Origin: Candidatus Spyradenecus sp.
GTDB taxonomy: Bacteria > Verrucomicrobiota > Verrucomicrobiia > Opitutales > UBA953
Direction: 5' to 3'
Assembly (NCBI GenBank): GCA_045535075.1
Contig: JAZSKX010000014.1
Span: 32,001 to 96,000, forward strand
DNA length: 64,000 nt
This document shows, piece by piece, positions 1-64,000 of the stretch (position 1 is the stretch's first letter; each line of letters starts with the position of its first letter). Both the position numbers and the translations under genes were made by a program. The notes beneath the pieces are model-generated. The model was given only the letters and a program-made list of their open reading frames with translations. It searched no databases and had not been told where the DNA came from.

Positions 1-1538
1 GCTTCGACAAAATTTTCTCGGGCTTCGACAATAACGCCCGGACGTAATCCCGCGCAGAAAATCGTGCGGGATTTTTTTGTTGCCGTTCCCGTCGCATCGG
101 CTTCAAGCCAGATTTCGATTTCGGCGACAGTTACGGCTGCCGGATGCGGGACTTCGGAAATCGTTTTCCACCAACCGACGCGTTCTCGTCGCAAATACCA
201 CGGGAGCGGCCAATATTCCGGTCCGACAAGCGCGACAAAAAAGTTTCTCGGATTTCCGCCGCCCGCGATGAAATTCGCTTTCGATTTTTCAATTGCGGGA
301 ACGATTTTTACGATGTCGTCGTACGGATGTTCGTATCGAAGCCCGCTTTCGCTTTTCCCGAAATCCGGAACCCGACAAAGTGCCCAAAACAGGAAAATCG
401 CGATAATTCCCCGTTTGATCCGGTTTTCATAAATCGTACGTAAGACCCGGGATTCAGCGACAAGCGCCGGCATCAAGGCGATTCCGGGAATAAGCCCCAA
501 AACGCACCACGGTGTTTTGTAAGGAAGTAGTGAATACAAGATGAGTATGGCGAGTGTCGCTGATGCGGTGAAAACGATTTTTGAAAAATCGCTCAGCATG
601 AAACGGCATCCGAATTTGCGTTCTTTGCGTGTGGGAAAAAATGTTCGCAGGAGAAACAGCGCGAGCGGCGTTCCCGCGAAAAAGAGAAGCCAACGCTCAT
701 TTTGAGAAAGGAGCTTCGCATAATAAAAAAACGATTTGCCGTGCGGCGATTCCGAGTTCGTTCCCGTAAAAAAATAATTTTTGAAGGCAACGAAAAAATC
801 CGCCAATCCGCCGGGATTTTGTCCGAATGAACTGTAAAAAAGCGCGGCAATCGTTCCCGCAGCGACGGTGGCGATACCAAGGCGATTGGCAAATTGCTTT
901 GCAGATTCTCCCGGCTCGTGAAAATGCCGCCGCAAGAGGATAATTCCTGCGCCGCCGAGCGCGAATGCCGCCGCCATGAGAAGCCAAGTTTCTTTGCTCG
1001 CAACGGCGATTCCCGCGCAGATTCCTGCGAGCAAGGCGTTTAATAAATTTTTTTTCCTAAAAAACCAAATGCCCGCCGCCGTCCAGGCAAAGACGACTAA
1101 GACTGTTTCCTGAATAAAATAGCCGGAATAAAAAGCGGCAATTTGCGAGGCGGCGAGAAGTGTCCCCGCAAGTGCTACAGGAAGAATTTTCTTCCCGAAA
1201 AAACTCAGCGGAATCAGCACGCAACCGAGCGCTCCGACAATCGCGGGAACGGCGCGCACAAGCGTTTCCGTCAACTCGGCGAAACTGGCGATTCCGAAAA
1301 TTTTGCAAAGCCAAAACGTGAAAAAATAAAGCGTCGGACCGTGAAAATCCTGAGGATTATAGACGAACGTTTTCCCGGCGAGCATTTCTCCGACGCGGTA
1401 AGCCTGAACGGCTTCGTCGCTGTGCATTGCGCGTGTGTCGATTCCCTCAAAACGTAAGTAAATCGAAAATACGAAAATCGCCGCGAGCGTTCCCGCGAAA
1501 ATCAGATTTCGGGTAATCGGCGACGGATTTTTCGGCAT
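1..1538 (-). CDS. TIGR03663/Agl23-like membrane glycosyltransferase (GT-C fold, PMT_2-like); runs off the left edge; not in the ORF track
   Basis: Manual translation from ATG 1538 (TGATG overlap with the rarA stop) stays open to position 1. Family motifs: RAMHSDEA, YNPQDFHGPTLY, FYSGYFIQE, SKET, FYSSFGQNPGG, YSLLPYKTPW, YWPLPWYLR, plus many hydrophobic segments. Confidence 0.85.
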   Translation of the reverse strand, partial: MPKNPSPITRNLIFAGTLAAIFVFSIYLRFEGIDTRAMHSDEAVQAYRVGEMLAGKTFVYNPQDFHGPTLYFFTFWLCKIFGIASFAELTETLVRAVPAIVGALGCVLIPLSFFGKKILPVALAGTLLAASQIAAFYSGYFIQETVLVVFAWTAAGIWFFRKKNLLNALLAGICAGIAVASKETWLLMAAAFALGGAGIILLRRHFHEPGESAKQFANRLGIATVAAGTIAALFYSSFGQNPGGLADFFVAFKNYFFTGTNSESPHGKSFFYYAKLLSQNERWLLFFAGTPLALFLLRTFFPTRKERKFGCRFMLSDFSKIVFTASATLAILILYSLLPYKTPWCVLGLIPGIALMPALVAESRVLRTIYENRIKRGIIAIFLFWALCRVPDFGKSESGLRYEHPYDDIVKIVPAIEKSKANFIAGGGNPRNFFVALVGPEYWPLPWYLRRERVGWWKTISEVPHPAAVTVAEIEIWLEADATGTATKKSRTIFCAGLRPGVIVEARENFVE

Positions 1539-2920
1539 CAGGATTTTTTCTTGCGGGAAGGCTTTGCGTTTTGGCGGCGAATTTTTTCGCGAAGTTCGTT
1601 CCATCGTGCAAGGCGTTCGGCGATGGCGGCTTCCGTTCCGTTTGTTTTCGGCGTGTAGATTTTAAGCGGCGTTTCCAAATAGGTCTGCCCGGAAATGCCT
1701 TCGGGAAATTCGTGCGAATAAAGATAATCCGCGCCGTTCCCGAGCGATTTGTTCAGCTTGTTATGGGCATCGCGCAAATGCGCGGGAACACGTTGGCGAG
1801 GCGTTTCGCGAATCAGGGCGCGCGCGGCGAAAATGGCTTCCGTTGCGCTGTTGCTTTTCGGGCAAGTCGCAAGAAAAAGTGTGGCGTGCGCGAGCGTCAG
1901 CTGTGCTTCCGGCATTCCGATAAAATCGCAAGCCTGTTGCGCGGCCACGGCAACCGTGAGCGCGCGTGAGTCCGCCAATCCGATGTCTTCGCTTGCTAAA
2001 ATTACAAGCCGACGCGCAATAAAACGCGGGTCTTCGCCGCCTTCGAGCATAACGGCGAGCCAATAAACCGCCGCATCCGGGTCGCTCCCGCGAACCGATT
2101 TGATAAACGCCGAAATCGTGTCGTAATGCTCGTCTTCGTTGCGGTCGTAGCGGATTTGGCGTTCCCGTGCGAAGGCGGCGATATCGTCGAGGGTCAGGGC
2201 GGAATTCGGCGCGTGCCCGAGGGCGACGGTTTCGAGCGCGTTTAAGGCGCGGCGCATATCGCCTTCGCTCATGCGTGCGAGCGCGAGCAAGACTTCTTCG
2301 GTTGCGGAAATTTTTAGAGAGCCCAATCCGCGTTCTTCGTCGGCGAGCGCGCGTGCGAGCGACGCGACAACGTGTTTTTCCGCGACGGGTTCGAGCCGGA
2401 AAAGATGCGAGCGCGACAGCAACGGAGGAATGACGTAAAAGCCCGGATTGTGCGTCGTGCAACCGATGATGCGGACGTTGCCGGCTTCGACGTCGGGCAA
2501 AAGCAAATCCTGTTGCGCTTTGTTAAAGCGATGAATTTCGTCGATGAGCAGAAGCGTTCGCTGCGACGGATTCGCGCGCGCCATGCGCAAAATATCGCGC
2601 AGTTCCGCCGTGTTTGAAAGTACGGCGTTGATTCGGACGCAACGGCAATGCGTGACGGCGGCGATGACTTCCGCGAGCGTGGTTTTTCCGCAACCGGGCG
2701 GACCGTAGAAAAGCAGACTGCCGAAATTGTCCGTCGAAATCAGACGCGGCAAAAGTGTTCCCGCGCCGAGAATTTTTTCGTGTCCGAAAATTTCTTCCAG
2801 ATTGCGCGGGCGCATACGTGCCGCCAACGGACGCCGGAAACCGTGTTCCCGCGTTTCTTCGTGCGGCGTGTTTTCTTCAATATTTTCCGCAAAAAGCGAA
2901 TCTGTAAAGTCGTCGGACAT
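1538..2920 (-). CDS. rarA: Replication-associated recombination protein A (RarA/MgsA AAA+ ATPase)
   Basis: PLAARMRP, Walker A GPPGCGKTT, IDEIHRFNKAQQD, HYDTISAFIKSVRGSDPDAA. Confidence 0.95.
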   Translation of the reverse strand: MSDDFTDSLFAENIEENTPHEETREHGFRRPLAARMRPRNLEEIFGHEKILGAGTLLPRLISTDNFGSLLFYGPPGCGKTTLAEVIAAVTHCRCVRINAVLSNTAELRDILRMARANPSQRTLLLIDEIHRFNKAQQDLLLPDVEAGNVRIIGCTTHNPGFYVIPPLLSRSHLFRLEPVAEKHVVASLARALADEERGLGSLKISATEEVLLALARMSEGDMRRALNALETVALGHAPNSALTLDDIAAFARERQIRYDRNEDEHYDTISAFIKSVRGSDPDAAVYWLAVMLEGGEDPRFIARRLVILASEDIGLADSRALTVAVAAQQACDFIGMPEAQLTLAHATLFLATCPKSNSATEAIFAARALIRETPRQRVPAHLRDAHNKLNKSLGNGADYLYSHEFPEGISGQTYLETPLKIYTPKTNGTEAAIAERLARWNELREKIRRQNAKPSRKKKS

Positions 2921-2983
2921 TGAGACGTCAGTCTAAGCCTTAGCGCTTTATTCTTAAAGAAAAATTCCGGTTTGCAGCGGGAG

Positions 2984-3817
2984 TTACTGCGCTGTCGCGT
3001 TTTTACTTTCCTCCTGAATGTTGTTGCAAATTTCGATAAATTCGGCGAGGGGAACAGGAAAAATTTCTTCCCGGTCCAAGTTGAGGTTTTCCGGATTACC
3101 GGTAAAGCGGATACTGTTTTCTACGTTGCTCGGGTAAAACGAAAATTCGGTCGACGGGGGAGAAATTTGTTTTGAGATTGCACTTCCGTTGCGGGCGAAC
3201 ATTTTTACGGATACCGTTTCCTTTTCTTTGACGAGGTAGATGTGCGGAGCAAGCGAAAGTTGCGGATTATGTTTGTCGGGGAAGTTGACAATCAGAAGGA
3301 AAATCGCCGGGAGTACAATCCAGGCAAGCTTTATACCCCATGTTGCGGGAACGGTTTTTCCGTACTTTTGCATTCCCGCGGGATTACTTTTTTTCAGAAG
3401 CAGATAAAGAAAGATAGTGACTGTTACAATTGAAAGATAGGGAATCGGAAAGTCTCCGAAGAGTAGAATCCACCAACCGCTAAGTCCGGCATCGTGAAAA
3501 CGGCGAACCGTATGCGTCCAGAAAAAGAAAGTTATTTGTAGCGCGACTAAAATCTGCAGATTGTACAGGACGATTCCGGTCCAAAACGGAAAACTCGCCT
3601 GAAAGTAAAGCTCTTTGAGCGAATAAGCACCAAAAATTCGGAGGAGAAGCTCGAAGCCGAGTTGATCAAGCAAAAGTCCGACGGCTGTAATCGGAATCAC
3701 GGCAAGCCAGTAATTCTGCCTCGACATGCAACCTGAAAAAGTTCCATGATTTCGATAGGCATCAAGCCAAGCTTTTTTTAATGTTTCCACGATTGCGGCG
3801 GAGTCGGGAGAATTCAA
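2984..3817 (-). CDS. DUF805-family membrane protein with a C-terminal soluble extension
   Basis: FSGCMSRQNYW and TVRRFHDAGLSGWW match DUF805 motifs; TTG start overlaps the upstream stop. Confidence 0.75.
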   Translation of the reverse strand: MNSPDSAAIVETLKKAWLDAYRNHGTFSGCMSRQNYWLAVIPITAVGLLLDQLGFELLLRIFGAYSLKELYFQASFPFWTGIVLYNLQILVALQITFFFWTHTVRRFHDAGLSGWWILLFGDFPIPYLSIVTVTIFLYLLLKKSNPAGMQKYGKTVPATWGIKLAWIVLPAIFLLIVNFPDKHNPQLSLAPHIYLVKEKETVSVKMFARNGSAISKQISPPSTEFSFYPSNVENSIRFTGNPENLNLDREEIFPVPLAEFIEICNNIQEESKNATAQ

Positions 3818-4818
3818 TTCCGGATTGCGGAGAGAACTTGAAACGCGTGCCCCATTTTCCCCGGATGAATAATTTCGATGAGTTTGGCGCGTTCCCGTAT
3901 GGCGCTTTCCGAGTGTTGGCGCTCGCCGGCATCAATGATTTTTTGAATCGCGGGCAGGGCGAATTTCATGAAAAAAGCTTCTTGTCGAAGCGTTCGGACG
4001 CGGGAAAATCCGGCGGCTTCGGCAATCGGTTCGAGGCGATCCCAAAGGACGTGGCAAGTCAAGTCCTGCTCTCCCGGGCGTGCCGTTAGTGCATTGCTCT
4101 GTGAGTGGCGGAAATAAGCGCGTGCCGTTCCCGCAGGAAACGTGTCGAGGCAATCGGCGAGGCGTTTCCCGTAATCGGGAAAAATCATTGCGCCGTGCCA
4201 ATTGCCGGCGAGAATTTTTTGCAAAAGCATTTCGGCGTCGAGCGCAATGTCCAAGTGCCAGTCTTCGTCTATTTGTTGCGGGAGCGCCTCTGAGATGAAT
4301 CGGGCGAGGGCGTCTGTCGAAATTTCGGGTAAGACGGTTTCAAGCCATTCGCCGTCGCGGGAACGGAAGACACCGATTTCCCGCCATTTTCCTTCTTTAA
4401 AAACGAGTCGGTGAAACGGTTGCGCGTCCAGGAGTTCGTTTGCAAAGACAACGGACTTTTCGGGAATTTCAATAGTTTCGCCGAGGCGGAATGTTTTTGT
4501 TTCTGCGAAAACGCCGGCGGCTTCCTCCAAATGGCATTGTCCCGGTTCGGCGCCGATTTCGACGAATGTGCATTCGCGGGAGTCTATGCCGGCTTCCGCC
4601 AAAAGGCTTTGCGCCGAGGCGACGAGGAGTTTCCCGAAAACATCACCCATCGTCGCGGAGGTGTAAAAATCCGTGCCCGCCGCCGTACCGACGCGTTCCC
4701 GTTTGCGTGCGTAGTAACCGTACTTGGGCGCAAAAAGCGCGATTTCGCAAAAATCCCGAAAACTCAAAATTCCGCCGCGTTCCCGCGCCGCAATGTTTAA
4801 TAGCGCATCTATTCCCAT
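3814..4818 (-). CDS. SAM-dependent methyltransferase, MidA/NDUFAF7 family
   Basis: YGYY...DFYTS, VEIGAEPG, ANELLDAQP, DYG, PGEQDLTCHV. Confidence 0.9.
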   Translation of the reverse strand: MGIDALLNIAARERGGILSFRDFCEIALFAPKYGYYARKRERVGTAAGTDFYTSATMGDVFGKLLVASAQSLLAEAGIDSRECTFVEIGAEPGQCHLEEAAGVFAETKTFRLGETIEIPEKSVVFANELLDAQPFHRLVFKEGKWREIGVFRSRDGEWLETVLPEISTDALARFISEALPQQIDEDWHLDIALDAEMLLQKILAGNWHGAMIFPDYGKRLADCLDTFPAGTARAYFRHSQSNALTARPGEQDLTCHVLWDRLEPIAEAAGFSRVRTLRQEAFFMKFALPAIQKIIDAGERQHSESAIRERAKLIEIIHPGKMGHAFQVLSAIRN

Positions 4819-4830
4819 CGGGTTTCCCGT

Positions 4831-6786
4831 TTATTTTTTGGCGCGCACACGGGAACGCTTTTTGCGCGCGGGAACGAGGTAGGATTTGTTTTTAATGAGA
4901 TTTTCGTAGAGCGCAAGCAACGCGATGCCTTCCCGCGGGCGCACTTTATCCGCCTTGGTCGCTCGATCGATTTCGCGTTTGAGCATACGGCAAAGATCGT
5001 CGGCGTTGTATTGAATCATGTTCAGAATTTTATCGACCGAGTAGCCGGAGATGGCTTCTTCGATGTAAAACCCGTCTTCTTCGTCGTCTTCGAGGAAGAC
5101 GTGTGCCTCATCAACGCGTCCGAAAAGATTGTGCAAATCGCCGATGATGTCCTGATAGGCGCCGACGAGGAAGACGCCGAGGTAATAAGGCGCATTCGGC
5201 GTGATCTTGTGCAGATTGAGCGTGTTGCGAATATCTTCGAAATCAACGAATTCGGAAACCTTCCCGTCGCTGTCGCAGGTGATATCGACGAGCGTTGTCG
5301 GCACCGTCGGTTTTTCGGTTAGGCGATGGACGGGAGCGATCGGGAAGAGTTGTCCGATTGCCCAACTGTCGAGCAAAGATTGAAAAACGGAGAAATTGCA
5401 GACGTATTGTTCCGAGAGCATGACGTCCAAATCGAGCAAGTCTTCGGGAACGTTGCCTTCGAGCGAGGGAATTTCCTTGTGAATTTGGCGGCAGATGTGC
5501 CAAAAAAGGCGGTCGGCTTCGGCGCGGTTTTCGAGGTTGAGATAGCCGTGTTGGAAAAGCGAATGCGCTTCTTCCCGTTTTTGTCGCGCATCGTGGAAGC
5601 GTTCAAGCAGTCCGTAATGGCTTCCGCCGTTGAGAATTTCTTCGAGTTCCCGCACGATGGGCGCTTTTTTGCGCGTGACGAGCGGTTGCGCCGTGTCGTC
5701 CGCCGTTACGATGCGCCCGACGGCTTCGGTAATCAAAATCGCGTGCGGTGCAACGATTGCTCTGCCGCTTTCCGAAGTAATTGTCGGGTGGGCAATATCC
5801 GCGTCATCGCAAACCGTCTTGATGTTGGCAACGACGTCGCGCGCGTAAACTTCCATCGAATAATTCATGGAGCTTTCGTAGTTTGAGCGGGAACCGTCGT
5901 AGTCGATCCCGAGCCCGCCGCCGACATCCAGATGTCCCATCGGGAAGCCCATTTTAACCAGCTCGCAGTAAAAGCGTGCCGCTTCCGTAACCGCTTTTTT
6001 GATGGTTAGAATATTCGGTACCTGCGAGCCGATGTGGAAATGCAGGAGGCGGAGCGACGCCGTCATTCTCGCGCGCTTCAGTTTTTTTGCCGCCAGAATA
6101 ATTTCGCCCGGCGTCAGTCCGAATTTCGCATATTCGCCGGTTGATTTTGCCCATTTGCCTTCACCGCTGGTCGTGAGTTTAACACGAAATCCGATTTGCG
6201 GTTCCGCGTTCATTTCCTTGGCGATGCGGATAATTTGATCTACTTCATCGAGTTGCTCGACGACAATAATCGTGCGCTTGCCGAGACGTTGTCCGAGCAA
6301 CGCAAGACGAATGTAATCTTCGTCCTTGTATCCGTTGCAAATCAGCAGGGCTTTTTTGTTCTCAAGCAATGCGAGCGCGATTTGAAGTTCCGGTTTACTT
6401 CCTGCTTCGAGACCGTAATCGTAGTCGTCTCCCGCATCTAAAATTTCTTCAACGACTTCCCGTAACTGGTTTACTTTAATCGGGAAAACTCCCTGGTAGC
6501 GCCCGCGGTAGTTCTCATCTTCAATTGCCGCGCGGAAAGCCCGATTGAGTTGAATCACGCGGGAACGCAAAATGTCCTGGACGCGAATGGTCATCGGCGG
6601 ACGCAACCCCATGCTTTCCGCTTCTTTAATGATGTCCGTGATGCGAATGTGTCGGGCGTCGCCTTGCGGATGAACGTTCAGGAAGCCTTCTTCGTCCACG
6701 GAAAACAGATTCGCACCCCAGCGTTTAAATCCGTAATAATCTTCGGCTTGAGCCGGCGTCCACACAGTCGTCTGATTTTTTTTCAT
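4831..6786 (-). CDS. speA: Biosynthetic arginine decarboxylase
   Basis: FPIKVNQ (PLP lysine), GLEAGSKPEL, LHFHIGSQ, DITCDSDG, GAYQDIIGDLHNLFG. Confidence 0.96.
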   Translation of the reverse strand: MKKNQTTVWTPAQAEDYYGFKRWGANLFSVDEEGFLNVHPQGDARHIRITDIIKEAESMGLRPPMTIRVQDILRSRVIQLNRAFRAAIEDENYRGRYQGVFPIKVNQLREVVEEILDAGDDYDYGLEAGSKPELQIALALLENKKALLICNGYKDEDYIRLALLGQRLGKRTIIVVEQLDEVDQIIRIAKEMNAEPQIGFRVKLTTSGEGKWAKSTGEYAKFGLTPGEIILAAKKLKRARMTASLRLLHFHIGSQVPNILTIKKAVTEAARFYCELVKMGFPMGHLDVGGGLGIDYDGSRSNYESSMNYSMEVYARDVVANIKTVCDDADIAHPTITSESGRAIVAPHAILITEAVGRIVTADDTAQPLVTRKKAPIVRELEEILNGGSHYGLLERFHDARQKREEAHSLFQHGYLNLENRAEADRLFWHICRQIHKEIPSLEGNVPEDLLDLDVMLSEQYVCNFSVFQSLLDSWAIGQLFPIAPVHRLTEKPTVPTTLVDITCDSDGKVSEFVDFEDIRNTLNLHKITPNAPYYLGVFLVGAYQDIIGDLHNLFGRVDEAHVFLEDDEEDGFYIEEAISGYSVDKILNMIQYNADDLCRMLKREIDRATKADKVRPREGIALLALYENLIKNKSYLVPARKKRSRVRAKK

Positions 6787-6898
6787 TTCTCGAAAAAGCA
6801 GTGTAAAGATTCGAACTTCGAAGTTTAGGAATTAACGGGATAAAATTAAAGATTAAAGAGCGACCGGAAGCGAAGCGGGAATTGAAAATGAGCAAGAC

Positions 6899-6945
6899 AA
6901 AAACGCGTTCCCGCGGAGTCAGTCACGGGAACGCGTTTGTTTTTT
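6899..6945 (-). terminator. Intrinsic terminator of ilvE, formed by an inverted pair of the CGGGAAC motif
   Basis: AAACGCGTTCCCGCG-n8-CACGGGAACGCGTTT; the one mismatch is a G-U pair on the - strand, followed by a U tract. Confidence 0.85.
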
Positions 6946-6966
6946 CGGATGATAAAATTCGGGAAA

Positions 6967-7836
6967 TTACGCAATCATCGTGCCGTCGATGCGGACTTTT
7001 TTGCGGAAGAGTTCGAGGATTTTTTCCGTGAGCGGACCGCATTTGCCTGCGCCGATTTTGCGTCCGTCGAGTTCGACGACGGGAACGACTTCTGCCGCCG
7101 ATCCCGTAATAAAAGCTTCGTCCGCATTCCAAATGTCATAGCGCGTCATGTCCGTTTCGACGACGGGAATGCCGAGTTCGCGTGCGCATTCCATCGCCGC
7201 CGAGCGCGTAATGCCGATGAGCAGCCCGGACGCGGGAGCAGGCGTGATGAGCTTTCCTTTGTGAATGATGAAAATGTTGTCGCCGGAGCATTCTGCGACG
7301 TTGCCCTGGTCGTTGAGCAAGAGGCATTCGTCGTAGCCGCAGTTAATCGCTTCGATTTTGGCGAGAATATTGTTCAAATAATTCAGCGATTTGACCATCG
7401 GCGGGAGCGCGGCAACGCTCATGCGGCGCGTCGGCACCGTGATGAGTTTAATGCCGTTGGTGTATACTTCCGGCGGATACAATTTAATGGAATCCGCGAT
7501 GATAATCATCGACGGTTTGGAGCAGTTGCGCGGGCTGAGTCCGAGGTCTCCCACGCCGCGCGTGATGACGGTGCGGATGTAGCCGTTGGCAACGCCGTTG
7601 CGGCGGCAGGCTTCGACGTGTGCCTGCGCGATTTCCTCACGGCTCCACGGCAAATCGAGCGCGATGGCTTTCGCCGAGTATTCGATGCGTTCGAGGTGCG
7701 CGTCGAGTTTGAAAATGCAGTTGTCGTAAACGCGAATGCCTTCAAAAAGCCCGTCGCCGTAGAGCAAACCGTGGTCGAAAACAGAGATTTTAGCGTCTTC
7801 TTTTTTGTAAAATTGTCCGTCGATGTAAACTTCCAT
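6967..7836 (-). CDS. ilvE: Branched-chain amino acid aminotransferase
   Basis: ISVFDHGLLYGDGLFEGIR, VKSLNYLNNILAK, ECSGDNIF; ATG 7836 (MEVYIDG) is preferred over the longer ORF start. Confidence 0.95.
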   Translation of the reverse strand: MEVYIDGQFYKKEDAKISVFDHGLLYGDGLFEGIRVYDNCIFKLDAHLERIEYSAKAIALDLPWSREEIAQAHVEACRRNGVANGYIRTVITRGVGDLGLSPRNCSKPSMIIIADSIKLYPPEVYTNGIKLITVPTRRMSVAALPPMVKSLNYLNNILAKIEAINCGYDECLLLNDQGNVAECSGDNIFIIHKGKLITPAPASGLLIGITRSAAMECARELGIPVVETDMTRYDIWNADEAFITGSAAEVVPVVELDGRKIGAGKCGPLTEKILELFRKKVRIDGTMIA

Positions 7837-7921
7837 AAGTGCGCCTATGGAATCACTCGGCGAGCCGAAACGCAAAGATTTTCTTTCCGGAATTAAAATT
7901 GCGGAAAAATCTGCGGGAACG

Positions 7922-9679
7922 CTATTCTGCGGGAAGAATTGCGTTGATGAAAAGTGTCATGCGTTCCTGAATGCTGCGCGGGTTAGAATCCGTCAGGCAT
8001 TCCCGGGCGAGTTTTTGCATGTCCGAGAGCGCGCAATGCCTTAAAATATAGCGAATTCGCGGAGCCGAATTTGCCGTCATGCTGAGAGAATCCGCGCCGA
8101 AGCCGATGAGGAGCGGCGCGAACGCGGGATCGCCGGCGACTTCTCCGCATACGGCACACGGGATTTTTGCCCGGTGCGCCGTGGCGATGGTTCGCGCAAT
8201 TGCACGAATAACAGCGGGGTGGTAAGAATCGTAAAGATGCGAAATCTTTTCGTTCCCGCGATCCACGGCAAGCATGTATTGCGTGAGATCGTTGGTGCCG
8301 ATACTGAAGAAATCCGCTTCGCGGGCAAGATCTTCGGAGACGGAAACGGCGGCGGGAACTTCAATCATCGTCCCGACGGGAATGTCTTCGTCGAAGGGAA
8401 TTCCGGCGGTGCGCAACTCGTTTTTGGCTTCTTCCAAAACGTCCTTGGCGTTGATTAGCTCGGCAAGAGAACTAATCATCGGAAAAAGAATGCGGACGTT
8501 CCCGCGAACGCTCGTTCGTAGGATTGCACGTAATTGCTCCTTAAATATATCCCGGAATTCGAGGCAAAAACGAATGGCGCGAAATCCCATAAACGGATTT
8601 TCCTCCGCCGGCATCAGCCCGCTCGAAATATGTTTGTCGCCGCCGATATCAAGCGTGCGTATGATGACATTGCTGTGTTTCGGCAGAGCATCGACGACTT
8701 GGCGGTATTCTTCGTATTGAACTTCTTCCGGCGGGAAACGATCCGAACGCAAAAAAACACCTTCGGAGCGGAAAAGCCCGATGTCGTAAATATGCATTTT
8801 CCGCATCGTATCCAAATTTTCCTTACCGGAAATATTGGCTTCAATGTGGAAGAAATGACCGTCCGCAGTCGTATCCGGCTTGGCGCTTTCTTCCGCGATA
8901 AGTGCTTCAAGGCGGGAACGACGCAACGAAATCTGCTCGTAGATATCGAGCGTTTTCTTACTCGGATTGACGTAGACAAGCCCCTTGTCGCCGTCGACAA
9001 GGACTTCGTCGTCTTGCGCAATTCTCAGAGTCGCCTTGCGAAGCCCGACGACGGCGGGAATGCCGAGCGAGCGCGCAATAATTGCGGCGTGCGATGTGTG
9101 GTTTCCCGTATCCGTCAAAATTGCTAAGACGCGGGAACGATCAAACGCAATCGTTTCGGAGGGCGTGAGTTCTTCGGCAACGACAACCCGATTACAAAGG
9201 CGTTCCGAAGTGTTTTCCTGGGCTTTTCCGAGAAGATTTTTCAAAACGCGTTGTAAAACGTCCCGAATATCGGCGACGCGCTCTTTGAGATAGCTGTCGT
9301 CCATCCCGGAAAAAAAATCAATGTAATGTCCGGCAACGGAATTAACGCAATGTTCGGCGTTGAGCTTGGAGGTTTGAATCGCGCGCTTGGTTTCGTCAAT
9401 AACGGCGGGATCGTCCAAAACAAGCAGATGCGCGTCAAAAATCTCGGCATTGGCGGGACCGACTTGCGAGATAACTTCCTCAATGAGCTTGGAAATTTGT
9501 TTGCGGGTCTGAGCGACAGCTTTGTCAAAGCGGAGAATTTCGGCTTCGACGTCGTCAATTTTGTAGCAGGGCAGATCGACTTTTTTTTGAAGGAAAACAA
9601 ACGCCTTCCCGCGCGCAACGCCCGGCGCGCAACCGATGCCTTGAAGCCGATATTCCGTTTTGCCTGCCGTCTCGTTCAT
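7922..9679 (-). CDS. ptsI: Phosphoenolpyruvate-protein phosphotransferase (PTS enzyme I)
   Basis: TSHAAIIARS (phospho-His), RTLDIGGDK, EENPFMGFRAIR, FFSIGTNDLTQY, VCGE; start uncertain (9679 or 9715). Confidence 0.93.
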   Translation of the reverse strand: MNETAGKTEYRLQGIGCAPGVARGKAFVFLQKKVDLPCYKIDDVEAEILRFDKAVAQTRKQISKLIEEVISQVGPANAEIFDAHLLVLDDPAVIDETKRAIQTSKLNAEHCVNSVAGHYIDFFSGMDDSYLKERVADIRDVLQRVLKNLLGKAQENTSERLCNRVVVAEELTPSETIAFDRSRVLAILTDTGNHTSHAAIIARSLGIPAVVGLRKATLRIAQDDEVLVDGDKGLVYVNPSKKTLDIYEQISLRRSRLEALIAEESAKPDTTADGHFFHIEANISGKENLDTMRKMHIYDIGLFRSEGVFLRSDRFPPEEVQYEEYRQVVDALPKHSNVIIRTLDIGGDKHISSGLMPAEENPFMGFRAIRFCLEFRDIFKEQLRAILRTSVRGNVRILFPMISSLAELINAKDVLEEAKNELRTAGIPFDEDIPVGTMIEVPAAVSVSEDLAREADFFSIGTNDLTQYMLAVDRGNEKISHLYDSYHPAVIRAIARTIATAHRAKIPCAVCGEVAGDPAFAPLLIGFGADSLSMTANSAPRIRYILRHCALSDMQKLARECLTDSNPRSIQERMTLFINAILPAE

Positions 9680-9973
9680 GAAAACAACGATAAGAGCCCG
9701 TCTTCCCCGGCGCAAGCGCTATTATAAAACAAAACTTTTCTTTGTCTCTTTCGCTGTCCCGGCAAGCGAAACGCGGGAACGCTTTGAATTTTTTAGTCTT
9801 AAGTAAAGCAATTTTGCGTTACTGATGCTTCGCGAAAAAAACGAGGCGCCTGAAAGGTAGAAATCAGCGAAATCGGAGTTCGAGATTTGGTGAAAAATTT
9901 GTGCGTGTTTTTCAAGTTTTGTGAGAAAAACAAGAAATCCGCTTTCCATTTTTCGGGTATTGGCGTATTTTAA

Positions 9974-11608
<1,635 letters not shown>

Positions 11609-11650
11609 GGGGCTTCGAAATTGTAATTAAAAAACGAATATTTTGTTATC

Positions 11651-12208
11651 ATGAAAATCCAAGAAAAAAACGTGGTGGGTTTCCATTACACGCTGAAAGA
11701 TAAAGACGGGAACGTGCTTGATTCCTCCGAAGGACGCACGCCGCTCGAATATTTACACGGCGCCGGCAATATTATTCCCGGGCTCGAAAAGGAACTGATC
11801 GGACTCGCCGTCGGCGATAAAAAACAGGTTGAAGTCGCTCCGGAACTCGCTTACGGAGTAAAGCAAGACGCACTCGTCATTTCCGTTCCGCGTAAAAATA
11901 TCGAATTCGACGGCGAAATCGTTGCGGGAATGCGTTTCCATGCACAAGCCGCCGACGGGAACGTTCACGCGTTTACGGTCGTCGAAGTTGATGCCGAAAA
12001 CGTTAAAATGGACGGGAATCATCCGCTCGCGGGCGTTACGCTGTTTTTTGACGTGGAAATTACGTCGATTCGCGAAGCCACGGCGCGGGAACTCGCCGAA
12101 GGACATCCGCACATGGAAGGTTGTTCCTGTGGTTGCCACGGCGGGAACGACCATGAATGCGATTGTGACGGGGATTGCGACTGCGACGGCGGTTGCGGGT
12201 GCCACTAA
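11651..12208 (+). CDS. slyD: FKBP-type peptidyl-prolyl isomerase SlyD with a Cys/His/Asp-rich tail
   Basis: YLHGAGNIIPGLE, DGNHPLAG, IREAT..EL..GH followed by a metal-binding-type tail. Confidence 0.92.
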   Translation: MKIQEKNVVGFHYTLKDKDGNVLDSSEGRTPLEYLHGAGNIIPGLEKELIGLAVGDKKQVEVAPELAYGVKQDALVISVPRKNIEFDGEIVAGMRFHAQAADGNVHAFTVVEVDAENVKMDGNHPLAGVTLFFDVEITSIREATARELAEGHPHMEGCSCGCHGGNDHECDCDGDCDCDGGCGCH

Positions 12209-12222
12209 GCGAGGGAAAAATC

Positions 12223-14076
12223 ATGGCTCCTTTAACGCCTATTGAAGAACTTCGCCACAGCGCGGCGCACGTGCTCGGCGCCGCCGTTTTGCGCCTTTTC
12301 CCGGAAGCGCAACTCGATGTCGGGCCGGCCGTTGAAAACGGTTTTTATTACGACTTCGATCTCGACCATAAATTCACTTCTGAAGACCTCGAAAAAATCG
12401 AGGCGGAAATGAAAAAAATCGCGAAGGAAAATCAGAAATTCGAATTTACCGAAGTTTCGCGGGAAGAAGCCGAAAAGCTCGTTTCGGAAACGCCTTACCT
12501 GCAGGAATTCAAGCCCGGACGCCTTGCCGATATTCCCGAAGGCGAAAAAATCACGTTTTACCGCAACGGCGAGTTCATCGATTTGTGCCGCGGTCCGCAC
12601 GTGCGTTACACTTCGCAAATCAAAGCGTTTAAGCTGATGTCCGTCGCGGGAGCCTATCACCGCGGGAACGAAAACAATAAGCAGCTTCAGCGAATTTACG
12701 GCGTGGCGTTTGCCTCGAAAGCGGAACTTGATGAGTATTTACACAATCTCGACGAAGCCAAAAAGCGCGATCACCGCAAGCTCGGGCGGGAACTCAAGCT
12801 TTTCCATATCGACGAAGATGTCGGGCAGGGCTTGATTCTTTGGACGCCGAACGGTGCAATCGTTCGTCAGGAACTCCAAACCTTTATTTCCGAACAGCTT
12901 TTTAAGCAGGATTACAAACAGGTCTTCACGCCGAATATCGGCAACTTAAATCTCTATCGTACGTCCGGGCACTTTCCGTATTACCGTGAATCGCAGTTCA
13001 CGCCGGTTATCGATCAGGAACAAATCCAGAAGCTCGCGACCGAAGGAAAATCCTGCGGGGACTTGGCGAATTTGCTGACAGCCGGACAGCTCGACGGCTT
13101 CCTGCTTAAGCCGATGAATTGTCCGCACCACATCAAAATTTTTGCATCGCAACCGCATTCCTATCGCGATCTTCCCGTGCGCCTCGCCGAATTCGGTACG
13201 GTTTACCGCTGGGAACAATCCGGCGAACTTAACGGACTGACGCGTGTGCGCGGGTTTACGCAGGATGACGGACACCTTTTCTGCACCGAAGACCAAATCG
13301 GACAGGAAGTGCTCGGGTGCCTCGAACTCGTGAAGATTATTCTTTCCACGCTCGGAATGACGAATTACACCGTGCGCGTCGGTTTGCGCGATCCGGAATC
13401 GTCGAAATATATCGGGAAAGCCGAGAACTGGGAAAAAGCCGAAAATGCCTGCCGTATCGCAGCTGCAACGCTTGGCGTTCCCGTCAGAGAAGAAAAGGGC
13501 GAAGCCGCATTTTACGGACCGAAAATCGACTTTGTTGTTAAAGACGTGCTCGGGCGCGGTTGGCAACTCGGAACGGTTCAGGTGGACTTCAATTTGCCGG
13601 AACGCTTCAAACTCGAATACACGGGGGCGGACAACAAGCCGTGCCGTCCGGTGATGATTCACCGCGCGCCGTTCGGCTCCATGGAGCGTTTTGTCGGTAT
13701 TTTGATTGAGCATTTTGCGGGCGATTTTCCGACATGGCTCGCGCCCGAACAGGTTCGCATTCTTCCGCTTAACGATTCGCTCGTTCCCGCCGCCCGCGAA
13801 ATGCGCGAAACGCTCAAGGCAAAAGGAATTCGTGCGAGCGTCGATGAACATTCCGACAAGCTTGGTGCGAAAATCCGCCGCGCGGAATTGGAAAAAGTAC
13901 CGCACATGCTTGTGGTTGGCGCCAAGGAAATGGAAGCCGGCTTGGTCAACGTGCGTTCCCGCGCGGACAAATCGCTCGAAGGCTCCTGCACGCTTCAGGA
14001 ATTTATCGACAAACTTCTTCCGATTATCAAAGAGCGTCGCCTTTCGCCCGACGCGCCTTTGGCGAAGAAGGCTTAA
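12223..14076 (+). CDS. thrS: Threonine--tRNA ligase (short form without N-terminal TGS domain)
   Basis: LRHSAAH, DLCRGPH, RDHRKLG, KPMNCPHH, RVRGFTQDD, HRAPFGSMERF; ATG 12223. Confidence 0.97.
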   Translation: MAPLTPIEELRHSAAHVLGAAVLRLFPEAQLDVGPAVENGFYYDFDLDHKFTSEDLEKIEAEMKKIAKENQKFEFTEVSREEAEKLVSETPYLQEFKPGRLADIPEGEKITFYRNGEFIDLCRGPHVRYTSQIKAFKLMSVAGAYHRGNENNKQLQRIYGVAFASKAELDEYLHNLDEAKKRDHRKLGRELKLFHIDEDVGQGLILWTPNGAIVRQELQTFISEQLFKQDYKQVFTPNIGNLNLYRTSGHFPYYRESQFTPVIDQEQIQKLATEGKSCGDLANLLTAGQLDGFLLKPMNCPHHIKIFASQPHSYRDLPVRLAEFGTVYRWEQSGELNGLTRVRGFTQDDGHLFCTEDQIGQEVLGCLELVKIILSTLGMTNYTVRVGLRDPESSKYIGKAENWEKAENACRIAAATLGVPVREEKGEAAFYGPKIDFVVKDVLGRGWQLGTVQVDFNLPERFKLEYTGADNKPCRPVMIHRAPFGSMERFVGILIEHFAGDFPTWLAPEQVRILPLNDSLVPAAREMRETLKAKGIRASVDEHSDKLGAKIRRAELEKVPHMLVVGAKEMEAGLVNVRSRADKSLEGSCTLQEFIDKLLPIIKERRLSPDAPLAKKA

Positions 14077-14092
14077 TGCCGACGATGCTTAG

Positions 14093-14135
14093 AAAAAAGG
14101 CGTTCCCGCATGAAATTTCGCGGGAACGCCTTTTT
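14093..14135. terminator. Bidirectional terminator (thrS / TatD) formed by an inverted motif pair
   Basis: AAAAAGGCGTTCCCGC-n10-GCGGGAACGCCTTTTT, a perfect 16-bp stem between convergent genes. Confidence 0.9.
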
Positions 14136-14137
14136 GT

Positions 14138-14734
14138 TTAAATTGAGCCGAGTGCGGCATCGGATTCTTCAAAAATCCGTTCCGGAGGAATTGCTTCGCG
14201 TACTCGGCGCAGTTTTTCGGAGCCGCGTTGTTTCGGGGAAAACGAAAAAGTTGCGTCGGCAAGCCGAAGAAGTTCCCGTGCGATTTCAGGCGAACCGGAA
14301 AATGCATGAAAATGAAGCTTCGGGATTTGTTTTTCGGCATGAAAAATTCTTAAAAGCTCGTTCCATGCGCGGACGCAATGAATGTTTGCGGGAATATTCA
14401 GTTCGATTGCAAGTTGTAACTGTGAGGTAAAAATATCCGTCTGCTCGTCAAGAGAAACCTCGTGAACACGAATTTTATCCAGCCCGATTTCGCCGACTTG
14501 CGCGCGCGGTGTGCTTTCGAGAAATCGGCGAAGCACTTCGAGCCAATTTGCGCCGCGTTCCCGCAAGAACCAGGGATGTAGCCCGAATGCGGGAATAATG
14601 CCGCCGTTTTTTTTCGCGAGCGAGCTCAAGTTCTCAAAATCGCTTTCGCGAACGGCACAGACAACGCCGCTCCAATCTGCGGGAAGTGAAAAATCTTCCC
14701 GCTCCGGCAAGTGCGCGTGTGCGTCAAACTTCAT
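14138..14734 (-). CDS. TatD-family deoxyribonuclease
   Basis: DAHAHL, FGLHPW, VGEIGLD, IHCVRAW, HAFSGS, ESDA; ATG 14734. Confidence 0.88.
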   Translation of the reverse strand: MKFDAHAHLPEREDFSLPADWSGVVCAVRESDFENLSSLAKKNGGIIPAFGLHPWFLRERGANWLEVLRRFLESTPRAQVGEIGLDKIRVHEVSLDEQTDIFTSQLQLAIELNIPANIHCVRAWNELLRIFHAEKQIPKLHFHAFSGSPEIARELLRLADATFSFSPKQRGSEKLRRVREAIPPERIFEESDAALGSI

Positions 14735-14735
14735 T

Positions 14736-15725: not shown

Positions 15726-15787
15726 AAATCCATCCTATGCCTTTTTACTCTCAATTCGCGACAAATTTTTGTAGAGTTTCCGATACG

Positions 15788-16983: not shown

Positions 16984-16986
16984 AAT

Positions 16987-18264: not shown

Positions 18265-18270
18265 AATTTT

Positions 18271-26051: not shown

Positions 26052-26094
26052 AAAAAAGCGTTCCCGTGAAGTTTATCACGGGAACGCTTTTTTT
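26052..26094. terminator. Bidirectional terminator (hypothetical / galE) formed by an inverted motif pair
   Basis: AAAAAAGCGTTCCCGTGA-n6-TCACGGGAACGCTTTTTT, perfect stem. Confidence 0.9.
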
Positions 26095-34622: not shown

Positions 34623-35528
34623 ATGGCACATCAACTGACGTGGGAAAAAATCGATCCCGCGTATGTCGAAAAAGTTATTTGCCTCGCACGCGACGAAGAT
34701 ATCGCGGGAGAAGGTCTGATTGCCGCGATGCGACCGGCGCGCGCCGGCGATCCGACGACCGAAGTTTCCGCACCGCGCGGGAAAATGGCTGCTGCCTATT
34801 TGGTGGCGCGCAAGCCTTGCACGCTTTCCGGGTTGAGCATGATTCCTGCGATTTTGAAAATCTACGGCGGGAACGCGACGGCGGAATTTCACGCTAAAGA
34901 CGGTGATTCCGTTCCCGCGGGAACGGTTGTAGCGACCATTCGCGGCGATGCCTCCGAAATGCTTATGGCGGAACGCATCATGTTGAATTTCCTACAGCGA
35001 ATGAGCGGAATCGCTACGCAAACCGCGCGTTACGTCGCCGCGCTCGGAAACACGAAGACGCGCTTGCTTGACACTCGAAAAACCACGCCTTGTCACCGCG
35101 TTCTCGACAAATACGCCGTTGCCTGCGGCGGTGCTTGGAATCACCGATTGGGATTGTTCGATCAATTGATGCTAAAAGATAATCATTTGGCGGCGGACGA
35201 TGCGACGGCGGGGGCGGCGCTCGCGAATTTAGTGAGCCGCGCACGTGCCGAGCGTCCGGATTTGCCCTGTGAAGTCGAAGTAGATCGCATTGAGCAAATT
35301 CCGCCGGTTTTGGAAGCAGGAGCGGACATTATTCTCTTGGATAATTTCTCTGTCGAAAATCTTCGCAAAGCCGTTGAACTTATCGGCGATGCCGCGTGGA
35401 CGGAAATCAGCGGCGGGGTTTCGCTCGAAAGCCTTCCCGTGCTCGGAACCGTCGGCGCAGACTTTGTTTCCTGCGGCGCGCTTACGCACAATGTTCCGTG
35501 GATTGATATCGGTTTGGACTGGAAATAA
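34623..35528 (+). CDS. nadC: Nicotinate-nucleotide diphosphorylase (carboxylating)
   Basis: ERIMLNFLQRMSGIAT, DTRKTTP, NHRLGLFD..MLKDNH, LLDNF; start uncertain. Confidence 0.93.
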   Translation: MAHQLTWEKIDPAYVEKVICLARDEDIAGEGLIAAMRPARAGDPTTEVSAPRGKMAAAYLVARKPCTLSGLSMIPAILKIYGGNATAEFHAKDGDSVPAGTVVATIRGDASEMLMAERIMLNFLQRMSGIATQTARYVAALGNTKTRLLDTRKTTPCHRVLDKYAVACGGAWNHRLGLFDQLMLKDNHLAADDATAGAALANLVSRARAERPDLPCEVEVDRIEQIPPVLEAGADIILLDNFSVENLRKAVELIGDAAWTEISGGVSLESLPVLGTVGADFVSCGALTHNVPWIDIGLDWK

Positions 35529-47794: not shown

Positions 47795-47857
47795 TTGCGA
47801 TTATGTAAATTTCGGGCAGGCTTTCCTTGCGGGAAGGACCTGCCTTATTTTTTTTAA

Positions 47858-48331: not shown

Positions 48332-48391
48332 ATACGACTTGACTGACGCTTTGTAAATAGTAAACTTAAAATCTTTAGTGTTAATTTGGAT

Positions 48392-48865: not shown

Positions 48866-48880
48866 ATTTTAGCTTAGACG

Positions 48881-48913
48881 AAACGCGCAGTTTAAAAATC
48901 TGCGCGTTTTTTT
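48881..48913 (+). terminator. Intrinsic terminator
   Basis: AAACGCGCAG-loop-CTGCGCGTTT followed by a T tract. Confidence 0.8.
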
Positions 48914-48953
48914 ATTTCTTAAAAAATCGAAGCTTCCGTTGAATCCGGTTTCG

Positions 48954-48994
48954 AAAAAAAAGCGCGTTCCCGTGGACTGCGGGAACGCGCTTTT
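48954..48994 (-). terminator. Terminator of rph formed by an inverted motif pair
   Basis: AAAAGCGCGTTCCCGT-n5-GCGGGAACGCGCTTTT with an A8 tract on the left. Confidence 0.85.
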
Positions 48995-49003
48995 CGCTTC
49001 TAT

Positions 49004-49729: not shown

Positions 49730-49772
49730 AGTTTGAAAAATCGGAGGATTGCGGAAAGTTTTTTGCTTTGTC

Positions 49773-50606
49773 CTACTTGTGAGTGGAGATTGCGCGCTGG
49801 CGAACGGCTTCGAAGAGACAGATTCCCGCTGCCATGGAAACGTTGAGCGAGTCCGCCAAGCCGCGCTGCGGAATCGCGACGGGAATGACCGATTTAGCTT
49901 CCGGATTCTCAAGCCAAAAAGGAGAAAGTCCGGTCGCCTCCGTCCCGAGGAGAATTGCGCAGGATTGGCGAAAATCGCAGCTCCAATAAAGTTTTTCCGC
50001 GTCGGGAGTGGTTGCGAAAACGGCGACATTGCGTTCCCGCAACCACGTGTAAACCGTTTCTGCGGGAGCGATGGCAAGCGGCATGGAAAAGAGCGTTCCC
50101 TGCGAAGCACGCACGGCGTTCGGATTGTAAACGTCCGTTCCCGCGCCGCAACAAATCAGTGCCGTGCAACCGGCGGAATCCGCGGTTCGAAGGAGGGCGC
50201 CGAGATTTCCGGGCTTTTCGATGGATTCGGCAACAAGGTAGAGCGGAGCTTCTCCGGGATGAGGTTGCGGGAGCGCATCCAGCGTGTGTTTGCGCATTTC
50301 GGCGACTGCAAGAACGCCTTCGGGTTTGTCGCGATAACTGATTTTTTCGAATGCGCTCGCCGAAAGTTCAAAGCAGTTTTCCTCGGGAACGATTTGCCGC
50401 ATTTTTTCGGCGATTAATTGAGCCGGGCGCGAGCGGATTTGCTCCGGGCAAAAATAAAATTCCGTGATGCGAATTCCTCCGGTTACGGCGCGTTCGATTT
50501 CTCGAAGTCCTTCCAAAAGAAAGACGCCTTCGCGTTCCCGCGAGGAGCGTTCCCGTAGGCGGACAAGGCGCAAAATTCTGGGGTTTTGGCGGGATGTGAT
50601 CAGCAT
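49773..50606 (-). CDS. TrmH/SpoU-family RNA 2'-O-methyltransferase
   Basis: ITSRQNP, EKPGNLGALLRTADSAG, LGTEATGL, DSLNVSMAAG. Confidence 0.92.
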   Translation of the reverse strand: MLITSRQNPRILRLVRLRERSSREREGVFLLEGLREIERAVTGGIRITEFYFCPEQIRSRPAQLIAEKMRQIVPEENCFELSASAFEKISYRDKPEGVLAVAEMRKHTLDALPQPHPGEAPLYLVAESIEKPGNLGALLRTADSAGCTALICCGAGTDVYNPNAVRASQGTLFSMPLAIAPAETVYTWLRERNVAVFATTPDAEKLYWSCDFRQSCAILLGTEATGLSPFWLENPEAKSVIPVAIPQRGLADSLNVSMAAGICLFEAVRQRAISTHK

Positions 50607-63035: not shown

Positions 63036-63150
63036 AACTCAAAGATTAGAGGCGGAAGAGTTCTCAGACAATTTTCCTCTCCGCTCTCGCTTTTCTTGCA
63101 TGTCTGCAACCGGCAGAGTAAATTTCCCGCGAAGTTTAATGACATAAATT

Positions 63151-64000
63151 ATGAAAATTTCTGAAAAAATCGGAGTCCTGAAATTCGGATTCTGTATTCT
63201 TGTTTTACTTACATTATCCGGAATTTGCGCGCTAGCGGAAGATTTGCGCGTCCGTATCTCGCCCGGACGAGTCACGGAAAATCAAATGGCGCATCTCAAT
63301 ATTTATAGCGACGACGGCGGAAAAATTAGGATTAATGCGCTCCCGCAGGTCGACGGTTTAACGTGGCATCCGAATGTGACGGGTTCGCAAACAACGATTG
63401 TCAACGGAAAGCTTTCTTCTTCTGTCAGTATCGGCTTCACGGTTTCTCGGGCCGGCGAGGTTGTCATTCCGCGAATTCAACTTGAAACACCCGAAGGAAA
63501 ACAGTTTACGCAGTCCGTGAAATTTACGGTCGGCAAACTTTCTACGGGAATGTTTCGCGAAGACGGAACGGAAATGCCGCTTTCCGAAGCCGTTTTTTTG
63601 CACATTCAGCCGCAGGACCAAACGCGCACGACCTATTTTGTCGGAGAAGAAATTCCGCTTTACGTCGCCGCGCTTTCGCGTCCTGACATTAATGTTTCTT
63701 TGAATGCGGCGCCGCAACTCGGCGGGAACGACTCCGCGTTCACCGCTACGGAACGCGGGGCGACGCGTCAGGAAGTGCGTTTCCGTGGTGAAGCTTACAA
63801 CGCGTCCTTATTTCTCTTTGATTTACGCGCGATGAAAACCGGGAAATTCGACATCGTGTTTTCCGCAACGGCGTCTTGCGTTTTCGGCGGCGCGCGCGAC
63901 CCGTTTGAAGAACAATTCTTCGGAGGAAGTCTTCGCGTGAGCGGACTCGGATTCGGGATGTCCGGCGGGAATCGCGTCGCGCTCCCGCTCAAAGGAGAGC
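63151..64000 (+). CDS. BatD-family (oxygen tolerance) exported protein; runs off the right edge; not in the ORF track
   Basis: Manual translation from ATG 63151 stays open to the end: signal peptide, SQTTIVNGK.SSS...AG.VVIP, YFVGEEIP, DPFEEQFFG. Confidence 0.75.
   Translation, partial: MKISEKIGVLKFGFCILVLLTLSGICALAEDLRVRISPGRVTENQMAHLNIYSDDGGKIRINALPQVDGLTWHPNVTGSQTTIVNGKLSSSVSIGFTVSRAGEVVIPRIQLETPEGKQFTQSVKFTVGKLSTGMFREDGTEMPLSEAVFLHIQPQDQTRTTYFVGEEIPLYVAALSRPDINVSLNAAPQLGGNDSAFTATERGATRQEVRFRGEAYNASLFLFDLRAMKTGKFDIVFSATASCVFGGARDPFEEQFFGGSLRVSGLGFGMSGGNRVALPLKGE

Follow-up and report, generated by a model that had tools for sequence, protein, structure and literature searches.

The stretch of DNA analysed here, 64 kb long and referred to as the window, comprises positions 32001-96000 of contig 1 of a bacterial genome that we designate G000, and over its whole length, in genes and spacers and on both strands, it carries copies of one short word, CGGGAAC or its complement GTTCCCG (85..63729). 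The open reading frames (ORFs) with copies include the housekeeping genes mgsA-like, speA, ptsI, pyrG, thrS, purL and murA-like (EPSP-synthase family) and others; Pfam names were assigned to 16 window ORFs. An original prediction had picked out the word as a possible uptake sequence and had put it at about 220 copies, which proved close: we count 224 (the first at 85-91, the final one ending at 63729), compared to a mean of 14.0 (standard deviation, sd, 3.7; maximum 25) in 100 shuffles of the window that preserve dinucleotides. There are 108 copies on the + strand and 116 on the - strand, and the earlier tally of 59 among the first 122 on + is exact. The description of a non-palindromic word found inside as well as between genes also holds, with 191 of the 224 cores lying within crude ORFs, which make up 89% of the window, and the rest outside. 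The core is followed by G in 182 of the 224 copies, giving the 8-mer CGGGAACG, which differs from its own reverse complement; the base before these 182 is G in 120 cases, A in 46, T in 10 and C in 6, so that G or A accounts for 166.

The same word fills the rest of G000 (1,949,087 bases in 18 contigs, GC 52%). Counting both strands, the 7-mer occurs 6528 times, or once per 299 bases, and CGGGAACG 5159 times, or once per 378 bases; the extended forms GCGGGAACG and ACGGGAACG are present in 3244 and 1266 copies. The 9-mer GCGGGAACG is found 1581 times in forward and 1663 times in reverse orientation, while its reversed control word has only 34 copies in all. The word is sharply delimited: GCGGGAACGC has 1614 copies, as opposed to 0-192 for each of the single-base variants at the eight central positions. 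A logo built from 6527 copies confines the information to positions -2 to +8, roughly y-R-CGGGAAC-G-c, and the AT-rich flank of the Pasteurellaceae type that the original prediction had thought worth looking for is absent from it, with at most 0.02 bits per position outside that core. The signal is a sharp word, RCGGGAACG, without an AT-rich flank.

Density is uniform along genes and peaks 20-60 nt past stop codons. In G000, 203 pairs have CGTTCCCG followed by CGGGAACG at most 40 nt apart, with a modal start-to-start distance of 20, as compared to 49 pairs in the reverse order. Convergent core pairs at most 30 nt apart number 228, and the 151 of them outside ORFs usually sit some 25 nt past an ORF end, flanked by an A-run and a T-run. 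A crude predictor that looks for a hairpin plus T-run finds 537 terminator-like sites after 1494 ORFs; 219 of these sites hold the core, and 139 hold it in both arms. Paired copies of the DNA uptake sequence (DUS) of Neisseriaceae and the uptake signal sequence (USS) of Pasteurellaceae likewise make terminator stems in which one configuration is strongly preferred, according to Kingsford 2007 (PMC1852404).

Five inverted pairs lie in the window. The one at 14102..14127 (+), GTTCCCG-N12-CGGGAAC preceded by an A-run and followed by a T-run, starts 25 nt past the thrS stop (thrS, 12175-14076, +) and is read from its sequence as a bidirectional intrinsic-terminator-like hairpin made of two copies of the word. 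Pairs with A-run and T-run flanks are also found at 26060..26085 (+; N12 spacer, 26 nt past the end of a + ORF, terminator-like), at 48966..48986 (-; N7 spacer, 17 nt past the stop of the - ORF 49004-50110, terminator-like), and at 6907..6932, where a pair with an N12 spacer occupies the gap between speA (4831-6786, -) and the next ORF and is not assigned to a strand. In the fifth, at 34911..34924, GTTCCCG directly abuts CGGGAAC to form a 14-nt perfect palindrome outside the ORF calls and without a T-run. This abutting 14-base palindrome is frequent elsewhere in G000, in ORFs and spacers and again without a T-run, and is distinct from the terminator pairs. As a side observation on the window, three of its ORFs, 30363-32651 (+), 39203-40468 (-) and 40481-41740 (-), encode 762, 421 and 419 residues and have no Pfam family at E <= 1e-5.

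The CTP synthase of the window matches public records of Candidatus Spyradenecus, Candidatus Spyradosoma and Opitutales metagenome-assembled genomes (MAGs) from ruminant guts, and we scored relatives by their count of GCGGGAACG against the reversed control word. All 18 other genomes of the genus are enriched (340-5581 copies, control 37-100). Four of them have a low density, namely G001 with 746 copies, G002 with 732, G049 with 760 and G065 with 340, as compared to 3060-5581 in the other 14. Outside the genus, all 42 genomes from four sister genera of the same family are at or near the control level, as are all 8 from other families of the order. With abundance throughout the genus and sister genera at chance, the origin of the word lies on the stem of the genus. 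Four sister-genus genomes, sampled for 57-100 kb each, contain no comparable word; in samples from G001 and G002 (137 and 129 kb) the word is still the first (G001) and second (G002) most common 8-mer, if about four times rarer, and no alternative word is present in them. Dialects, which the original prediction had led us to expect, were found neither in the low-density members nor in sister genera; a single word is used across a GC range of 52-65%. One sister-genus genome, G023 (L230-L234), contains overlapping 10-mers that occur 13-14 times each in 60 kb and suggest a palindromic repeat some 17 bases long, unrelated to the word.

Public sequences give a comparable picture. In loci of 14-21 kb, density is 0.7-0.9 copies/kb for Spyradenecus-type sequences (GC 56%) and 2.7-3.9 copies/kb for Spyradosoma-type sequences (GC 65%) and more distant gut MAGs (GC 52%), and it is near zero in still more distant Opitutales. 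The stretch itself recurs at ~98-99% identity in gut or feces metagenome runs from 10 studies, the named hosts being sheep and goats. When contigs from four of these runs were compared with positions 1-20000 of the window, 37 of the variants listed (40 of 527 variant positions) fell in 1-3010; none of the 37 is in the 12 core copies of that segment, where about 1 would be expected, and the comparison has no power.

To what degree the word is held at the DNA level can be seen in orthologues, which were collected by blast from fetched stretches of G001, G002 and G033 (a collection based on pyrG synteny gave three usable genes). G000 and G033 (795 kb sampled, GC 63.6%, 3.27 8-mers/kb) have 340 orthologue pairs in common, with a mean protein identity of 74.5% and a nucleotide identity of 73.3%. 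At 604 of 1066 G000 sites (57%) the exact word stands in the same column of G033, and in the reverse direction 604 of 1193 G033 sites are kept in G000; the background, measured on 6648 random 8-mers, is 13.4% identical. If only sites are considered where the 3-4 overlapped residues are identical in both proteins, 87% of the motif 8-mers are identical (487/558), compared to 26.3% of the remaining 8-mers when these are restricted in the same way (51,823/197,338). Synonymous positions within the word are therefore near frozen over a 12-point shift in GC.

No excess conservation of the word with respect to G000 was found in the low-density G001 and G002. These genomes provide 47 and 61 orthologue pairs with G000, at about 80% nucleotide identity, and the G000 sites persist at 19 of 120 positions in G001 and 35 of 205 in G002. 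Given identical amino acids, motif 8-mers are identical in 28% of cases in G001 (other 8-mers 32%) and in 29% in G002 (other 8-mers 29%). The sites that they do possess are largely in common with G000, that is, 19 of 20 in G001 and 35 of 49 in G002.

A three-way comparison (35 genes, 34,155 aligned bases) allows these losses to be placed. Patterns are given in the order G000, low-density genome, G033, with 1 for a site present; G033 serves as outgroup on the basis of identity, which is 0.80 within the pair of G000 and low-density genome and 0.75-0.76 to G033. Ten sites have the pattern 111, 38 have 101, 6 have 110, 36 have 100, 54 have 001, 2 have 010, and none has 011. The low-density clade has thus lost 38 of the 48 sites common to G000 and the outgroup and has 2 private sites, compared to 36 and 54 in the dense genomes. 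From these patterns it follows that the ancestor was dense, that dense lineages retain ancestral sites and acquire private ones, and that the low-density clade gains almost none. Within this nested clade, gain of the word has ceased and the copies left decay at a neutral pace. Private sites fall for the most part where the protein is variable: the residues are the same across the three taxa at just 8 of 90, and in 27 of 90 a residue has changed solely in the lineage that bears the motif.

The RluB-like proteins of 17 genomes yield a tree in which G000 is sister to G001, G002 and G049 (support 98/96) and G065 stands apart on a long branch; the label of low density requires two changes in every one of 200 bootstrap trees. 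Two independent switches to low density are thus likely; they are not proven, because the tree represents one gene and one of the switches one long branch.

Within G000, word-poor 5-kb windows (at most 5 copies, the mean being ~17) coincide with regions of atypical composition. These include an island with a C5 methylase and NgoBV-like and HpaII-like endonucleases, and the surroundings of two HsdM genes. The island (contig 12, ~44600-50200; L137) is a defence island with a GC content of 40%, inserted amid housekeeping genes, and in addition to the methylase and the two endonucleases it encodes an AAA_15/AbiEii-like ATPase. A Mu-like prophage of 35 kb outside the window (contig 16, ~185000-220000; L134, L135), with genes for a TniB/MuB-like ATPase, a Mu portal and a tail-fibre-like protein and with Dam-like methylase genes at its end, has 0.77 copies/kb (27 in 35 kb), as opposed to 3.40/kb in the remaining genome. 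One of the prophage ORFs has a weak match to an ADP-ribosyltransferase-exoenzyme domain. Among viral contigs, 29 matched the terminator-pair pattern and none was as dense as the host, the maximum being 0.73/kb, a scan that says little, as the collection may contain few phages of this genus.

We suggest, with a probability of roughly 0.45, that RCGGGAACG may be a clade-specific uptake word for 'self' DNA, of the DUS/USS kind, in one genus of gut Opitutales. The asymmetry of the word, the terminator pairs in one order, the restriction to one clade and the poverty of the prophage make biased uptake and recombination the most economical mechanism, and from the word's anatomy, its clade distribution, its conservation at the DNA level and its on/off dynamics we infer that the uptake machinery would be its reader. 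A surface or periplasmic component of a type IV pilus/ComEC route would bind double-stranded DNA that bears the word, and conspecific fragments would thereby be preferentially imported and recombined. Alleles that spell the word would then spread by biased uptake, a form of molecular drive, and alleles that lose it would be replaced, so that the word would gradually fill tolerant codon contexts and terminator stems. DNA entering by other routes, such as prophages and restriction-modification islands, would stay poor in the word, and loss of the reader or of the habit of transformation would be followed by decay at the neutral rate, matching the low-density lineages.

A plausible route for import exists in G000, and the sequence-level hallmarks of uptake that were tested all appear to be present, from the anatomy of the word to the genes for pilus, ComEC, DprA and ComM. 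ComEC has 570 residues and the Competence domain only; DprA and ComM are both encoded. Two PilB-like ATPases, a PilT-like ATPase and PilC are found in one cluster, and an operon running from PilM to a TPR-secretin is present, together with seven prepilin-like genes, four of them clustered between ruvX-like and rluB-like genes. The competence genes suggested for inspection by the original prediction were thus recovered with regard to ComEC, DprA, ComM and the type IV pilus; ComEA was not.

A number of observations weigh against the uptake reading, and several concern this machinery. ComEA went undetected in G000, an assembly that is 99.45% complete: the profiles HHH_3 and TIGR00426 pick up only a Tex-like frame of 805 residues, below the curated cut-off. 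The import and pilus genes also match in most of the non-competent control genomes, so their presence is permissive only. They are moreover kept where the word decays, with ComEC in 19 of 19 genus genomes (the decaying ones included), DprA and ComM in 19 of 19 each, the PilB/PilT ATPase cluster in 19 of 19, two orphan pilin-like genes in 19 of 19, and the large TPR-secretin in 18 of 19, the one that lacks it being a dense genome. The four-pilin cluster is intact, at 80-90% identity, in all three low-clade genomes examined (G001, G002 and G049), its synteny being kept only in the closest clade, so that 12 of 16 fetched loci were uninformative. With the tested genes kept in decaying lineages, loss of none of them explains the switch. 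No obvious candidate for a ComP-like receptor stands out among the seven pilin-like proteins, none of which is basic: isoelectric points (pI) are 4.3-5.1, and 7.7 for the putative major pilin. ComP is unlike these pilins in being basic.

Further points on the same side come from the distribution of the word. Spacing is not even; it is Poisson-like, with a coefficient of variation of 1.10 (1.02 with close pairs collapsed), and 8.1% of 1843 1-kb windows are empty, as compared to 7.0% expected. Only 729 of the 5159 8-mers lie outside ORFs genome-wide, and so large an intragenic share (~86% of copies) differs from DUS and USS, about half of whose copies are in terminators according to a recent preprint (10.1101/2025.10.24.684340). 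The 27 copies in the prophage, few as they are, amount to about five times the number predicted from base composition, and a viral contig (L124) with 14 copies in 19 kb exceeds its expectation several times; both count against uptake because an intracellular process would have the same result. Finally, no report of natural transformation in Verrucomicrobiota was found in the literature.

Two side observations concern the pilus and secretin genes. In G065, the genome of lowest density, a copy of an orphan pilin-like gene (contig 88, 4259-4915) has one in-frame TGA; its homologue in G000 lies beside recF (contig 2, 45148-45810), and the other three low-density genomes have no such stop, the G002 copy being split by contig ends. 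The TGA in G065 and the contig break in G002 are too little to tie the switch to this pilin. A second, shorter secretin of ~790 residues is found in 7 of 19 genomes (G001, G002, G004, G012, G033, G049 and G065), which covers all four low-density genomes, and is absent in G000.

Other explanations have to be set against this evidence. There is next to no chance that codon, dipeptide or amino-acid usage generates the word as a side effect, or that a short mobile repeat of the repetitive extragenic palindromic (REP) or miniature inverted-repeat transposable element (MITE) type has it as its core. Two frames do dominate (xCG-GGA-ACG with 1446 copies and xxC-GTT-CCC-G with 1156), and the proteins as such favour the word about 3-fold over a shuffle of codon order (500 vs 160), both as a usage effect would have it; yet all six frames carry CGGGAACG, with 294-1446 copies each, and so does non-coding DNA. 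In the ORF set used for these controls (1496 crude calls, the longest non-overlapping ones from 300 nt upwards, which together span 90% of the genome and of which some are placed on the wrong strand), 4435 copies are observed within ORFs. When synonymous codons are shuffled ORF by ORF, so that the protein and its codon usage stay the same, 500 are left (sd 19), a ~9-fold excess, and shuffling codon order leaves 160 (sd 13), a ~28-fold excess (30 shuffles each); enrichment thus stays after the codon-aware control on which the original prediction had placed weight. For a mobile repeat, a conserved flank would be expected, which is absent beyond ~11 bases, and the copies occupy orthologous columns of housekeeping genes; REP and MITE elements are longer units and mostly intergenic, whereas here some 11 positions are informative and 86% of copies are in ORFs. 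The logo, the frames, the codon-aware shuffles and the conservation in orthologues together refute this explanation. A polar chromosome signal, such as Chi (read by RecBCD/AddAB) or the FtsK-orienting polar sequences (KOPS, read by FtsK), is very improbable. Like Chi and KOPS or the architecture-imparting sequences (AIMS), the word is a G-rich 8-mer over-represented on the chromosome, it is in slight excess on the G-rich strand (2273 copies vs 1854 on the other, or 55%, in the 78 of 86 20-kb bins with clear GC skew), and its strand asymmetry tracks GC skew (r = 0.58) and gene strand (r = 0.49). A G-rich word combined with gene-strand bias would, however, yield 55:45 by itself, and the common inverted pairs make no sense for a polar mark. 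Chi and KOPS are strongly polarised, far more strand-skewed than the word here, and 10-100 times rarer; the strong leading-strand polarity that would have pointed to them is not seen.

We hold it to be improbable that a DNA methyltransferase or restriction-modification enzyme targets the word, with methylation and biased repair driving its spread. A candidate is an MmeI-family type IIL enzyme of 995 residues in G000 (contig 2, 15779-18763; L011/L139), which is complete with all five MmeI Pfam domains and is the only enzyme found that would have an asymmetric site. MmeI relatives recognise asymmetric sites of 6-8 bp ending in AC, a form that the 7-mer core, which ends in AC, resembles; restriction-modification genes are also easily lost, which could account for the switch. 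But an MmeI-family gene is present in just 10 of 19 genus members, at 35-80% identity. None was found in G003, G006 and G009, three genomes of very high density, and the low-density G001 has a copy, which carries one in-frame stop (TAA). C5 methylases occur in 10 of 19 genomes and in none of eight dense ones, and G000 has no N6_N4 methylase and no Vsr. Its Dam-like genes are only those at the prophage end, and two of its three HsdM-like genes adjoin composition-atypical, word-poor windows, the third lying on a small contig; type I (HsdM) sites are in any case bipartite, and restriction targets are normally avoided rather than enriched. A methylase-driven origin is disfavoured by the patchy occurrence of C5 and MmeI-type methylases across the genus, and a conserved methylase is unlikely as the driver, judged on the families searched (others were not searched). 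A more serious alternative, possible if doubtful, is that the word is read inside the cell by a sequence-specific system, for example mismatch correction or gene conversion biased to the word, or else a nicking or repair signal or a chromosome-organising protein, with no role in DNA uptake; this would make it a non-palindromic, methylase-independent counterpart of the highly iterated palindrome HIP1 of cyanobacteria. Conservation beyond codons is the same kind of evidence as that given for HIP1 by Xu et al. 2018 (PMC5861425). The on/off pattern fits the loss of any reader, the tested competence genes persist where the word decays, ComEA was not detected, and the prophage and the phage-like contig are moderately enriched. 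On the other side, no candidate for such a reader was found, nor a Vsr or a conserved methylase, and there is no short-range regularity of spacing; the known HIPs are palindromic and the word here is asymmetric, and terminator pairs in one order are a documented hallmark of uptake sequences. It is accordingly conceivable, although we would not expect it, that the word is the footprint of a switchable, sequence-specific maintenance system within the cell, in which case the two decaying lineages would mark the loss of its reader. The original prediction had left the choice between an uptake system and a methylation- or repair-driven motif; the uptake-sequence hallmarks on the one side are present, and the methylation-driven reading on the other is weakened (no Vsr, C5 methylases in 10/19, MmeI-family genes in 10/19).

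In this gut genus of Verrucomicrobia the anatomy of an uptake sequence has turned up independently. To our knowledge, sequence-specific uptake that relies on a 'self' word in the genome has been established for just two families of proteobacteria, and we know of no other well-known hyperabundant word than HIP1, whose function is still unknown. The genus also offers a natural experiment, with at least two lineages in which production of the word appears to have stopped and neutral decay set in, next to close relatives that are still gaining it. This contrast between dense and decaying genomes makes the reader findable through comparisons of gene content and substitutions, and would allow a direct test of whether such words spread by molecular drive. 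In practice, the word is a marker for binning and for assigning DNA of this genus to its host, and if the uptake reading is true it would provide a handle for the genetics of a gut lineage of the uncultured type. We found no description of the word, or of any hyperabundant word in the genus, in the literature (subscription journals and supplements lay outside the coverage), in line with the original prediction, which had known of none either; among the literal matches listed for the word, there were only primers and unrelated text. In the preprint cited above (10.1101/2025.10.24.684340), uptake-enhancing sequences are treated as a feature of Neisseriaceae and Pasteurellaceae.

In comparison with known systems, HIP1 (GCGATCGC) is similar in its density, in its conservation across genomes beyond codons, and in having no function at the level of individual genes. 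It differs in being a palindrome, the word here being asymmetric and no conserved methylase having been found; Elhai, in 2015, is said to have linked HIP1 to cognate methyltransferases. The study of Xu et al. 2018 (PMC5861425) describes HIP1 as conserved beyond codons and tied to chromosome maintenance, with reader and function unknown.

The likeness to DUS (GCCGTCTGAA and its dialects in Neisseriaceae, read by the minor pilin ComP) extends to a short asymmetric word with thousands of copies on both strands, in genes and spacers, that is restricted to one clade and rare in prophage and island DNA. As with DUS, inverted pairs form terminator stems with one order strongly preferred (PMC1852404), and a type IV pilus and ComEC/DprA route is present. 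The differences are the sequence and the phylum, the ~86% intragenic share, the lack of dialects over GC 52-65%, the undetected ComEA, and the lack of an evident basic ComP-like pilin, as judged by pI. DUS has a density of ~1/kb, and the word here is about 2.5-3 times denser than DUS and USS.

USS (Pasteurellaceae; a AAGTGCGGT core plus an AT-rich flank) is similar in its abundance, strand symmetry, use of all frames and terminator pairs. It differs in its AT-rich extension, which is lacking here (at most 0.02 bits beyond -3..+8), and in its lower density, and the uptake role of the word here is predicted from sequence. A 2025 preprint (10.1101/2025.06.16.659825) reportedly predicts the minor pilin ComN to be the long-sought USS receptor. 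One more trait of the word in G000 and its relatives is USS-like: new copies appear mainly in variable protein regions, often together with amino-acid changes, and a similar origin is reported for USS.

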